Part shown: piece after piece, positions 18,001 through 21,000 of the stretch | How positions within the stretch are numbered: position 1 is the stretch's first letter | How the letters are laid out: every line of letters starts with the position of its first letter | IMG/VR virus record: IMGVR_UViG_2718218322_000002 | From: a virus | Lineage: Duplodnaviria > Heunggongvirae > Uroviricota > Caudoviricetes | Reading direction: 5' to 3' (one strand) | DNA: 64,000 nt | Program-made: the position numbers

Positions 18001-21000
18001 GAAAGCCCGCTCCCTCATCCTCTGGACAGAACGAGGCGCAGCCCGTCATGCAAAAATGCTCGAAACCGATCAGGCGTGGGAGGTGTTCGAAAAACTGGAA
18101 GACTGCTATTTCAGCCAGTGCAAGAAAAATACTGGCAAACAAGAGAAGAGCACCAACGAGCTTTCCGCAAAAGAAGCAAACAGCCTTGTATGGTTATGGG
18201 ATTATGCTAACCGCTCACAGGCATTATTCCGCGAACTGTATCCGGCGCTAAAACAAATTCAATCGAACTATTCCGGCAGATGCTACGACTACGGTCATGA
18301 GTTTTCGTATGTTATCGGAATGGCGAGAGATGTTTTAATCAACCACACACGAGATGTTGATATTAATGAGCCAGACGGACCAACGAACCTTTCCGCATGG
18401 GTAAGGCTTAAGAACAAAGAGTTGCCGCCTTCACTGCATCGCTACTGACAATTGACAACTTAACAAACCCAGCTTCGGCTGGGTTTTTTATTACTGAATT
18501 TTCAATGTGAGAGGACATGACAATGAATGAGCTGATAAATAGCAGTATCATCAAAATGACAAGCATTGAAATCGCTGAGTTAGTGGGAAGTCGTCCAGAT
18601 AACGTAAAAATATCAATAGAGCGCCTGGCTAAATCTGGAGTTATTCAACTTCCTGCATTGCAGGTTTTCGAAAAAAATCAATAACTTAGGGCTGCGCCGT
18701 AGTGTCGAGGCTTACGTCTTCGAAGGCGAACAAGGTAAGCGCGACAGCATTATTGTCGTTGCCCAGTTGTCGCCGGAATTCACCGCTCGTCTTGTTGACC
18801 GTTGGCGAGAACTCGAAGGGGCAACCGCAAAGATCCCACAAACCTTTTCTGAGGCATTGCGCCTTGCAGCTGACCTTGAAGACAAGAAGGCTGAACTGGA
18901 GAAACAGCTTGCTCTCGCAGCACCTAAAGTTGAGTTTGCCGATCGCGTTGGCGAGGCCAGCGGAATTTTGATTGGAAACTATGCAAAGGTTGTTGGTATT
19001 GGTCCAAACAAACTGTTTGCGTGGATGCGCGATCACAAAATCCTTATTGCTTCAGGTGCCCGGCGCAATGTGCCAATGCAGGAATATATGGATCGCGGCT
19101 ATTTCACAGTGAAAGAAACAGCGGTCAATACAAATCACGGAATACAGATATCGTTCACCACAAAAATCACCGGTCGTGGTCAACAGTGGCTGACAAGAAA
19201 GCTGCTAGATAACGGAATGCTTAAAGTAACAGGGGAGGCTGCTTAATGGCTAAACCAGCGCGAAGGAAATGCAAAATCTGTAAGGAATGGTTTCACCCGG
19301 CATTCTCAAATCAGTGGTGGTGCAGCCCGGAACACGGAACTAAATTAGCGCTCGAACGACGAAATAAAGAACGCGAAAAGGCGGAAAAAACAGCAGAGAA
19401 GAAACGACGACGAGAGGAGCAGAAACAGAAAGATAAACTTAAGATTCGAAAACTCGCCTTAAAGCCCCGCAGTTACTGGATTAAACAAGCCCAACAAGCC
19501 GTAAACGCCTTCATCAGAGAAAGAGACCGCGACTTACCATGTATCTCGTGCGGAACGCTCACGTCTGCTCAGTGGGATGCCGGGCATTACCGGACAACTG
19601 CTGCGGCGCCTCAACTCCGATTTGATGAACGCAATATTCACAAGCAATGCGTGGTGTGCAACCAGCACAAAAGCGGAAATCTCGTTCCGTATCGCGTCGA
19701 ACTGATTAACCGCATCGGGCAGGAAGCAGTAGACGAAATCGAATCAAACCATAACCGCCATCGCTGGACTGCCGAAGAGTGCAAGACCATCAAGGCGGAG
19801 TATCAACAGAAACTTAAAAAACTGCGAAACTGAACCGCCCCGGTTTTCCTGGAGAGTGTTTTATCTGTGAACTCAGGCTGCCAGATCATCGTTTCTGATG
19901 GAAGCATAATAAGCTTTTTCTGCTTCTGCCGGAGGGATATGACCCAGCCTTCCCAGCAATCGTCGATTGTTATACCAGTCCACCCACGTGAGTGTGGCCA
20001 GTTCCACTTCTGCACGGTTTTTCCAGCTCTTACGGTGTATTACCTCCGCTTTGTAAAGACCATTGATGCTCTCCGCCATCGCGTTGTCATACGAGTCACC
20101 TGTACTCCCTGTTGATGCCAGCAGTTTTGCTTCTTTTAGTCGCTCCGTATAGGCCAGTGATACATACTGAGAACCTTTATCACTGTGATGGACTGTGCCG
20201 GACGGCCGACGGGCCCACAACGCCTGCTCCAGTGCATCCAGCACGAATGTCGTTTCCATAGACGATGAGACTCGCCACCCCACGATACATCCGGAAAACA
20301 CATCAATGATGAACGCCACATAGACGAAGCCCTGCCATGTGCTGACGTAAGTAAAATCAGCCACCCACAGCTGGTCAGGACGTTCTGCCACGAACTGACG
20401 GTTTACGCGGTCGCCTGCGGAAACGGCTTTCCGGCTGACGGTAGTACGGACCTTTTTACCCCGGAGAACACCGGCAAGTCCCATAACCGCCATGAGGCGC
20501 GCCACTGTACATCTGGCCACCCTGATACCTTCGCGTAACAACTGGCGCCAGACTTTACGCACACCGTACACCTGATGATTTTCATCGTATACGCGCTGTA
20601 TCTCTCTCTTCAGCCAGTCATCGCGCTGCGCACGGGCACTGCGTTTATCCGGATGATGTCGCTGTTGCTGACAGTGGTAATACGTTGACGGGGCAATATG
20701 CAGTTCACTGCATACCGGTCCGACCCCGTACTGCTCACGCAGCTTATCCAGCAGCGGCATTATTTTTTCCAGAGGCGGTCGAACTCCGCCTTCGCAAAAT
20801 AAGCGGAAGCCTGGCGAAGGATATCGTTACTGCGGCGCAGTTCACGATTTTCACGTTCCAGCTCTTTCAGACGCTGACGTTCAGCGGTGGTGAGTCCACC
20901 ATCACCGCCCCCGGTATCCCGCTCATGCTGACGAACCCACACACGCAGAGTCTCTGGTGTACAGCCAATCTTTGGGGCAATGGAACAAATTGCCGCCCAT

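Follow-up and report, generated by a model that had tools for sequence, protein, structure and literature searches.

The immI region, or ant moron, of phage P22, found also in epsilon34 and CUS-3, consists of a divergent Arc-family repressor gene, a small Arc-like gene and then ant, with an antisense RNA element in the arc-ant spacer, an Ant protein made of P22_AR_N and P22_AR_C, and a terminator hairpin; in this podovirus it is located between gene 16 and the tailspike gene. It is an independently regulated unit placed in the late operon, and rapid flux in the "ant moron" region of P22-like phages has been reported (PMC2629481). Another antirepressor gene is found in the nin region of Stx phages (ant in VT2-Sakai and in Phi24B/933W, antB in 2851 and Nil2), after ninE and before roi and ninG, and its product combines ORF6N with P22_AR_C. 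Knockout of the nin-region ant of Phi24B lowered late-promoter expression on induction, which was restored by complementation, and the resemblance of the final 104 residues of the nin Ant to P22 Ant is already published, the identity being 82% for Phi24B (PMC3064807). The neighbouring nin gene, the roi of HK022 and of Stx phages, belongs to the same shuffled superfamily of antirepressor, Bro and KilA proteins. Domain shuffling among the KilA-N, Bro-N, ORF6N and P22_AR regulators of phages was reportedly described by Iyer, Koonin and Aravind in 2002.

The window analysed here, a stretch of 64 kb from a siphovirus-type Stx2c prophage, carries an antirepressor gene in its nin region and another in its tail cluster, and both end in the same sequence. 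Positions 18134..18445 and 46595..46906 are identical at 295/312 nucleotides (94.6%), without gaps and at an offset of 28461; the pairwise alignment thus agrees with the original prediction, in which about 95% identity had been estimated by eye for the 3' thirds and a direct repeat 28 kb apart had been proposed (spacing 28.46 kb). The left edge of the repeat is sharp, the preceding 80 nt of the pair matching only at random level. Indeed, the C-termini of the two proteins share 102/104 residues, and their N-terminal parts are unrelated (BLASTP E = 26). Downstream of a diverged spacer, an identical block of 25 nt (18467..18491 and 46928..46952) follows with the register kept, and the window contains its hairpin, CCCAGCTTCGGCTGGG, at two places only, 18468..18483 and 46929..46944. 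As had been claimed, two genes share their 3' third and a terminator in this repeat; both terminators are predicted by the scan, and the limits first given for them (18462..18490 and 46929..46950) were off by only a few bases. Over the whole unit of 358 nt, i.e., module, spacer and terminator, the nin and tail copies agree at 329/358 positions (91.9%). Only three families of direct repeats of at least 40 nt are present in the 64 kb, the remaining two being an IS element and a tandem array; the nin/tail repeat is therefore far beyond chance, and a chance repeat is rejected.

Prophage-rich EHEC genomes are easily mis-assembled, and a collapsed or mis-joined repeat could in general give such a picture; nothing specific points to it here, and the two-copy layout recurs in independent genomes and isolated phages (4276, 2851, YYZ-2008, WGPS6 and TW14359); apart from a third copy of IS629, the window matches strain 4276 at 19830/19830 and 18873/18874 nt. 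The probability of an assembly artefact is accordingly negligible. The features of the nin side are the following:

17744..18448, plus strand: nin-region antirepressor-family gene, 234 aa, with ORF6N (residues 12-105) and P22_AR_C (residues 134-206) by Pfam
18134..18448, plus strand: nin copy of the module, last 104 codons and stop codon, allele A, by alignment to the tail copy
18449..18466, plus strand: diverged spacer from stop codon to terminator, 7/18 matches to 46910..46927
18465..18491, plus strand: predicted Rho-independent terminator of the P22 ant-terminator type (GC stem, UUCG loop, T-run), from the terminator scan
18523..19246, plus strand: true roi homolog, a KilAC/ANT protein, pseudogene here (Pfam ANT PF03374, 113 bits)

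The common segment had been taken for an ORF6C-type domain, which Pfam contradicts: P22_AR_C (PF10548) is assigned to both proteins (103.8 bits in the nin gene and 101 bits in the tail gene, with a cut-off of 22.4), and at E <= 0.01 hmmscan found no ORF6C (PF10552), the nin gene giving only ORF6N and P22_AR_C and the tail gene only P22_AR_N and P22_AR_C. The module is 91% identical at the amino acid level to residues 197-300, the last 104, of P22 Ant; this value is for the nin copy, from which the tail copy departs at 2/104 residues. At the nucleotide level the identity with the 3' end of P22 ant is 84%, and the homology with P22 DNA begins exactly at 18133 and extends through the terminator annotated after P22 ant. 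Epsilon34 and CUS-3 each contain the module at about 91%; the former has a terminator annotated and the latter a "boundary sequence" ("bsq1"). As judged from these alignments, the repeated segment is the 3' end of P22 ant, that is its last 104 codons, together with the ant terminator. Like the "boundary sequences", or linkers, that have been proposed to mediate module exchange in lambdoid phages, it is a conserved sequence at a module border in otherwise different phages; unlike them, it is a coding domain plus terminator of about 358 bp and not a short intergenic linker, and its exchange is documented at the nucleotide level through mosaic alleles. As regards the structure of P22_AR_C, no sequence homolog was found in the PDB, and its AlphaFold model gave no Foldseek match (best E 2.4).

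The gene at 17744..18448 had been called Roi-like, a label that does not hold, its homologs being named ant or antB and the ANT (KilAC, PF03374) domain being absent from its product in Pfam, where Stx-phage Roi has this domain at its C-terminus instead of P22_AR_C. The product matches phrog_377, "anti-repressor Ant", over its full length, and the counterparts in VT2-Sakai and 2851 are annotated "ant, similar to antirepressor of bacteriophage P22" and "antB", respectively. Location and ORF6N + P22_AR_C architecture are those of the Stx-phage nin Ant, with the difference that 2851 and TW14359 carry two tandem ORF6N genes, antA and antB, and the window a single one. In VT2-Sakai and 2851, roi is the gene next to ant/antB, with the KilAC domain. 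Its homolog in the window adjoins ninG and is frameshifted by an insertion of +1 nt near 18695; RefSeq labels it "frameshifted" in the identical strain 4276, and the intact counterpart of 723 nt in TW14359, DEC5E and 2851 is annotated roi. The terminator that follows the nin ant has a predicted fold of -15.1 kcal/mol (z -5.5), and P22 and epsilon34 have the same hairpin in the terminator annotated downstream of ant.

The tail copy is located in a larger insertion, with these features:

45298..46980, unstranded: P22 immI-like "ant moron", between tail genes L (44599..45297) and K (46964..47701)
45306..45329, plus strand: predicted terminator hairpin at the left end of the moron, CCCACCGTCAGGTGGG plus T-run (scan; fold -14.8 kcal/mol)
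45314..45658, minus strand: repressor gene of the Arc family, Mnt-like, transcribed away from the arc-ant operon (Pfam Arc, 73 bits)
45742..45915, plus strand: Arc-like small repressor gene, first of the ant operon (Pfam Arc, 22.1 bits, cut-off 20.4)
45920..45986, minus strand: candidate antisense RNA, sar-like, in the spacer between arc and ant (Rfam RF00262, sar, 29.5 bits)
45986..46909, plus strand: tail-cluster antirepressor Ant, 307 aa, with P22_AR_N and P22_AR_C (Pfam)
46595..46909, plus strand: tail copy of the module, last 104 codons and stop codon, allele B, by alignment to the nin copy
46927..46952, plus strand: predicted Rho-independent terminator of the tail ant (terminator scan; fold -15.5 kcal/mol)

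The Mnt-like protein, here of 113 aa, has 49% identity with P22 Mnt over 43 aa (BLASTP E 2e-12), and the Arc-like protein 30% with P22 Arc (E 2e-5); in the gap of 83 nt between their genes, promoter-like sites are predicted on both strands (45668..45743). The sar-like candidate scores below the Rfam gathering threshold (29.5 bits against 43; E 0.0037); it is predicted to form two hairpins (-32.3 kcal/mol, z -6.6), the 3' one terminator-like, and has the position and strand of sar in P22 and epsilon34. The tail Ant, whose counterpart in 2851 is annotated "antirepressor-like protein", is 55% identical to P22 Ant (residues 1-307 versus 1-300, E 8e-118), its N-terminal two thirds being far more diverged than the module. 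The hairpin after ant, ACCCAGCTTCGGCTGGG with its T-run, is common to the features annotated as terminator in P22 and epsilon34, and the terminator lies directly upstream of the ribosome-binding site of K. On this evidence the tail ant appears to belong to a complete P22 immI-like unit, with mnt-like and arc-like genes, a sar-like RNA candidate, ant and a predicted terminator; the sequence suggests that, as in P22, this is an independently regulated unit within the late operon. Its location is different, the neighbours being L and K, tail genes of the lambda type.

Gifsy prophages and N15 carry small antirepressors under LexA control (cited in PMC8044961). These are likewise prophage-encoded, lie outside the immunity region and may allow cross-talk between co-resident prophages; however, they are unrelated small proteins, and control of the unit in the window would be of the Mnt/Arc/sar type.

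Comparison of the junction sequences revealed that the ant moron gives K a new Shine-Dalgarno sequence and first codons. Since the L-K junction is found without the cassette in 4330 of 5426 complete E. coli genomes, the tail cassette is, by comparative sequence analysis, a moron, i.e., a late-operon insertion absent from related phages; its specific part is present in 268 of the 5426 genomes.

The two copies of the module differ by 15 synonymous and two non-synonymous changes (dS 0.27, dN/dS 0.03), values indicating that both are under strong purifying selection. Such constraint, together with the high conservation of the domain in all its carriers, could be read as vertical descent of old paralogs, in which an extremely constrained C-terminal domain persisted without recombination. 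Protein constraint, however, cannot explain identity at synonymous sites or an identical non-coding terminator kept in register, nor does this reading agree with the sharp boundary against unrelated N-termini, with a tail Ant having 55% identity to P22 Ant overall and about 90% in the module, or with the block-wise mosaics described below, where a copy shows no differences from one parent and then none from another; it is therefore highly improbable. Module exchange, as originally proposed, is supported: the sharp boundary lies at the level of a domain, the N-termini are unrelated, and relatives carry mosaic alleles.

Comparison with these phages also gives an indication of the age of the pair. 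The tail copy of strain 4276 is identical to that of the window (358/358), the strain thus carrying the same A/B pair. The tail copy of TW14359, whose flanks match the tail region of the window at 99%, is instead identical to allele A over 358/358 positions, spacer included; the nin copy of WGPS6 is also identical to allele A, and allele B recurs in the mosaics of DEC5E and WGPS6. In the tail copy of WGPS6, positions 1-170 have no differences from the nin allele C and positions 256-358 none from the tail allele B, and the nin copies of DEC5E and YYZ-2008 have a tail-type middle and a nin-type 3' end. Allele A differs from allele C, that of VT2-Sakai and 2851, at 49/358 positions. A nin-type spacer was found in every nin-located copy examined, and a tail-type spacer in every tail copy but that of TW14359; in this set, spacer type is apparently diagnostic of a "nin-type" versus a "tail/P22-type" context.

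If the copies had arisen by recent duplication or gene conversion within this prophage, their high identity, their common boundaries and the register kept through the terminator would be accounted for, and the TW14359 tail copy indicates that complete conversion can happen. Nevertheless, the window copies have 29 differences in 358 nt, a dS of 0.27 and a spacer with only 7/18 matches; the A/B pair is stable, strain 4276 having the identical one, and the recurrence of alleles A and B in other phages makes each of them closer to an outside relative than to its partner in the window. This origin is thus very improbable, and the same data do not sustain the term "recent" that had been applied to the exchange, the pair being fixed in strain 4276 and other phages carrying, for each allele, a relative that is closer or even identical. 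Moreover, the two copies that reside in one prophage differ in all six prophages compared (80-94% identity), so that conversion within a prophage is too infrequent to homogenise them.

As read from the mosaic alleles, nin and tail copies have repeatedly undergone homologous exchange; the partner of a copy could in principle also have been a third-party phage and not the second copy in its own prophage. With high probability, one circulating module, the last 104 P22-type ant codons and the terminator, ends two otherwise unrelated genes, its alleles being drawn from a common pool and reshuffled. The nin ant, with its ORF6N N-terminus, and the moron ant both have this P22_AR_C + terminator module at their ends, and copies A and B would be two alleles of the pool and not the products of a recent duplication within the prophage. 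Recombination or gene conversion, probably of the RecA or Red type, would reshuffle copies of the nin, tail and P22-like kinds, whether inside one prophage or among prophages of the same host, and the conserved coding segment with its terminator would serve as a common right-hand joint for swapping N-terminal domains or even the whole moron. Both proteins are presumably antirepressor-type regulators, whose common C-domain may contact the same partner. The phenotype of the Phi24B knockout is indirect evidence that Ant may bind and inactivate the prophage repressor, here a LexA-family protein encoded upstream. The terminators would stop transcripts initiated at Pant or PR, and Q-modified late transcription would read through the tail copy.

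Direct repeats of about 330 bp and about 92-95% identity, in a prophage that encodes Bet/Exo recombination functions (according to the annotation of the identical strain 4276), might also be regarded as the substrate of a programmed or frequent deletion or inversion of 28.5 kb, with loss of Q, stx, the lysis and head genes and most tail genes. The search for hybrid junctions that had been suggested found no simple deletion junction, i.e., nin-ant N-terminus, repeat and K, in any of the 5426 complete E. coli genomes (chimeric query, coverage of at least 80%); it did find junctions of the tail cassette within nin in three genomes, and these reciprocal-type junctions are cassette relocations and not deletion products. 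Such a role of the repeats is hence even less probable than a recent duplication. The nin ant gene of DEC5E and that of STEC346 contain the whole cassette 45299..46952, and RM10410 has a related cassette in the same gene, with a different left junction.

The junction sequences are compatible with a move of the moron from tail to nin as well as from nin to tail. Its left-end hairpin is also the left end of the nin-located cassettes of DEC5E, STEC346 and RM10410, and before it lies TGGATTATG, a sequence equal to positions 67-76 of the module. The 8-9 nt between the L stop codon and this hairpin, GGATTATG, likewise equal module positions 67-76 and form exactly the junction of the DEC5E/JLK-2012 and STEC346 cassettes; because of this correspondence, the tail moron may derive from a copy once inserted within a nin antB gene. 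A broader scenario, in which the P22_AR_C + terminator unit is a portable joint, the whole immI moron hops between the late tail operon and the early nin region, the tail moron came from nin antB and conversion couples the antirepressors, is put forward only tentatively and is rather doubtful. If it were true, ongoing nin-tail conversion would, across the many prophages that share an EHEC host, link antirepressors expressed early with those under Mnt/Arc control, and a single target-binding domain would be present in both, with consequences for cross-induction and Stx production.

The repeat is real, yet it is an ordinary, documented case of phage genes built from swapped modules; mechanistically nothing is new, as the common C-terminal 104 residues, the nin ant, the tail-located antirepressor of 2851 and the moron's flux are already in the literature or in public annotations. 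What changes is the annotation, in gene names (ant versus roi) and domain label (P22_AR_C versus ORF6C), and the recognition that the tail-cluster "ant" is apparently part of a complete P22 immI-type control unit in an Stx2c prophage. Antirepressors influence the ease of Stx prophage induction; therefore, the Ant alleles and N-terminal domains carried could affect toxin output.

The module is present in 238 phage records and in 1117/5426 complete E. coli genomes, at 1852 places; with up to six copies per EHEC genome, this sequence of about 358 bp is a live substrate for recombination between prophages. Among 1.84 billion representatives, only 38 clusters at 50% identity match the module. Domain architectures were taken from this exhaustive representative search, as retrieval of homologous proteins gave mostly truncated fragments at identities of at least 80%: the domain is at least 89% identical across carrier proteins of 190-324 aa, whose N-termini belong to at least four different domains (P22_AR_N, Bro-N, ORF6N, KilA-N) or are unassigned. 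As in the shuffled KilA-N/Bro-N/ORF6N/P22_AR regulators, one C-terminal module is thus joined to several alternative N-terminal modules.

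In an ungapped alignment with a constant offset of 28461 nt, the window segments 18134..18445 and 46595..46906 are identical at 295 of 312 positions (94.6%), in line with the original prediction of a duplicated segment of about 310 bp, plus terminator, at about 95% identity. On the 5′ side of 18134/46595, identity drops sharply to random level. On the 3′ side, the two reading frames end with TGA (nin copy) and TAA (tail copy) and are followed by an 18-nt spacer with 7/18 matches; a 25-nt block comes next, identical in both copies and with the register kept (18467..18491 = 46928..46952), consisting of the hairpin CCCAGCTTCGGCTGGG and a T-run. 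This hairpin occurs only twice in the whole window, its predicted folds have energies of -15.1 and -15.5 kcal/mol in the two copies, and both were flagged as terminator-like sites. The 64-kb window has only two further direct-repeat families of at least 40 nt; one is a tandem array and the other an IS element.

The repeated unit is the 3′ end of a P22-type ant gene together with its terminator (358 nt, numbered 1-358 below). The genes involved at the two locations are:

Genes carrying or adjoining the repeated unit
17744..18448, nin-region ant, 234-aa ORF with ORF6N and P22_AR_C (PF10548) domains
18523..19246, roi homolog, pseudogene with KilAC domain and a +1 nt insertion near 18695
45986..46909, tail-cluster ant, 307-aa ORF with P22_AR_N and P22_AR_C domains

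The shared C-terminal parts of the two proteins are identical at 102 of 104 residues, while the N-terminal parts are unrelated (E = 26). The shared domain had been described as ORF6C-type, which is incorrect: a domain search gave no ORF6C match in either protein and P22_AR_C was matched instead. Similarly, the name “Roi-like” for 17744..18448 has to be abandoned, its counterpart being annotated as “ant, similar to antirepressor of bacteriophage P22” in VT2-Sakai and as “antB” in 2851, the prototype Stx2c phage; in both, roi is the next gene and contains the KilAC domain. TW14359, DEC5E and phage 2851 each have an intact roi of 723 nt, and the homolog of strain 4276, identical in sequence to that of the window, is called frameshifted by RefSeq. 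In 2851 and TW14359, two ORF6N paralogs, antA and antB, stand in tandem; the nin-region ant resembles a fusion of the pair, with the joint around 17964-18075 (in 17744-18133), within a conserved ORF6N segment; relative to WGPS6, about 455 nt are missing from the window between a partial antA-like pseudogene and antB.

The module is 91% identical to residues 197-300 of P22 Ant, and nucleotide homology of the nin gene to P22 (84%) extends from window position 18133 and takes in the terminator that is annotated behind ant in P22. Epsilon34, where the terminator is annotated, and CUS-3, where 101 nt 3′ of ant are annotated as “boundary sequence”, have versions of the unit that are about 91% identical. 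A match of 82% to P22 Ant was reported for the last 104 residues of a Stx-phage nin-region Ant (PMC3064807). The unit was found in 238 phage records, from P22-like phages and from phages of the Stx1a, Stx2a and Stx2c types. Among 5426 complete E. coli genomes, 1117 carry it, with 1852 places in total and a maximum of 6 in one genome. When 1.84 billion representative proteins were searched exhaustively with HMMER, only 38 clusters contained the domain; it is at least 89% identical across carrier proteins, which are 190-324 aa long and have P22_AR_N, Bro-N, ORF6N, KilA-N or unassigned N-termini.

The nin copy (allele A) and the tail copy (allele B) have 17 coding differences, 15 synonymous and 2 non-synonymous (D/N and R/H). 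The resulting values (dS 0.27, dN 0.008, dN/dS 0.03) indicate that selection maintains both copies and that the pair is not young. The general idea of a module exchange was right, but not its description as recent. Exactly the same allele pair, A in nin and B in the tail cluster, is present in strain 4276.

The tail-cluster ant lies between the tail genes L (44599..45297) and K, and the gene organisation around it is the same as in the P22 immunity I region:

Elements of the ant moron preceding ant
45306..45329, left-end terminator hairpin, CCCACCGTCAGGTGGG followed by a T-run
45314..45658, minus strand, divergent Arc-family gene, 49% identical to P22 Mnt
45742..45915, small Arc-like gene
45920..45986, minus strand, candidate sar-like antisense RNA in the arc-ant spacer

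With the Rfam sar model, whose gathering score is 43, the candidate RNA reaches only 29.5 bits; its two hairpins form a stable fold (-32.3 kcal/mol, z -6.6). The left-end hairpin is conserved (window 45298-45329) in the comparison loci L002 (3314-3345), L015 (~1314-1345) and L016 (~1550-1580). In the genomics of P22-like phages this unit was named “ant moron” and described as a region of rapid flux (PMC2629481). The L-K junction occurs without insert in 4330 of the 5426 genomes and the cassette-specific part in 268; comparison with the empty site places the insert at about 45298..46980. From the insert, K gains a different ribosome-binding site and different first codons in place of the native ones (46953-46980), the K start region being MTQTESAILAHARRC at empty sites and MLYSNILAHARRC in the window. 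An ORF starting at ATG 46925 and crossing the terminator hairpin is probably spurious.

Variable sites were tabulated from an alignment of 16 unit copies, from the window and nine other phages or prophages. Between the TW14359 tail copy and the window nin copy there is no difference in the 358 nt, not even in the spacer, which otherwise depends on context; the flanks of the TW14359 copy match the window tail region at 99%, and 34 genomes have this configuration at ≥99% identity. The WGPS6 tail copy shows no differences from allele C, the nin allele of VT2-Sakai and 2851, at positions 1-170, and none from tail allele B at positions 256-358. In the nin copies of DEC5E and YYZ-2008, a tail-type (B) middle is combined with a nin-type 3′ end, and the last 73 nt are common to alleles C and A. 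Such block-wise patterns are expected from homologous exchange between copies in the nin and tail locations. In six prophages with both copies, these are 80-94% identical and never identical; conversion is therefore recurrent in evolutionary terms, without homogenising the copies.

A search for hybrid junctions in related prophages, as the original prediction had proposed, showed a simple deletion product, with the nin-ant N-terminus, the repeat and K joined, in none of the 5426 genomes, and the opposite junction, leading from the tail-ant N-terminus through the repeat to roi/ninG, in three. In O55:H7 DEC5E (phage JLK-2012) and STEC346, a truncated ORF6N/antB gene of the nin region harbours the whole cassette (45299..46952); the left joint is GGGATTATGCC|(C/A)ACC, at module position ~76, and the right joint falls within the module 3′ end or the terminator. 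RM10410 has a related cassette in the same nin place and with the same left hairpin, with a different left neighbour. At the tail location, 9 nt, TGGATTATG, separate the L stop codon from the left hairpin, and they are identical to module positions 67-76, the exact nin-cassette junction in DEC5E and STEC346; this match may represent either microhomology for a tail-to-nin move or the footprint of a nin-to-tail move. Overall, the feature is an instance of ordinary, already documented lambdoid mosaicism, combining shuffling of the P22 Ant C-terminal domain with the ant moron; added here are the nucleotide-level evidence of nin-tail exchange, the nin-located moron of DEC5E and STEC346 and the absence of deletion products.

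As no solved structure related by sequence to the shared P22_AR_C domain was found, and the confident four-helix AlphaFold2 model of its 104 aa (pLDDT 87) had no Foldseek match in the PDB, we infer its role. P22 Ant inactivates repressors and, by homology, the two proteins may act likewise. The nin-region ant of Phi24B promotes late-promoter expression after induction (PMC3064807), and the same paper cites a similar observation for phage 2851. In the most likely working picture, the nin copy would be expressed early from PR after induction, reinforcing derepression; the tail copy would be kept off, in the P22 fashion, by the Mnt-like and Arc-like repressors and the sar-like RNA; and each terminator would stop its own short transcript, with Q-modified late transcription passing the tail one into K.

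Prophage landmarks
22951..23910, stx2A
22951-24191, stx2A and stx2c-B, exact matches to strain 4276 genes
5606-6915, 9934-11243 (direct) and 19831-21140 (inverted), three IS629/IS1203 copies of 1310 nt, 95-100% mutually identical

The match of stx2A and stx2c-B to strain 4276 identifies the window as a Stx2c-converting prophage integrated next to sbcB. The window and the sbcB-integrated Stx2c prophage of this O157:H7 strain are identical (19830/19830 and 18873/18874 nt) apart from the third IS629/IS1203 copy (19831..21140), which truncates the ninG 3′ end and is missing in strain 4276. The first copy interrupts gam, according to the 4276 annotation. At 37148-37752, a 281-nt unit occurs three times, overlapping at 162-nt spacing and 91-96% identical, which corresponds to tandem 162-nt (54-codon) repeats within a large ORF (36983-38206), annotated in strain 4276 as a frameshifted portal protein. 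An ISEc8 element (IS66 family), starting at ~48600, adjoins the tail assembly gene I downstream, as annotated in the identical 4276 region.
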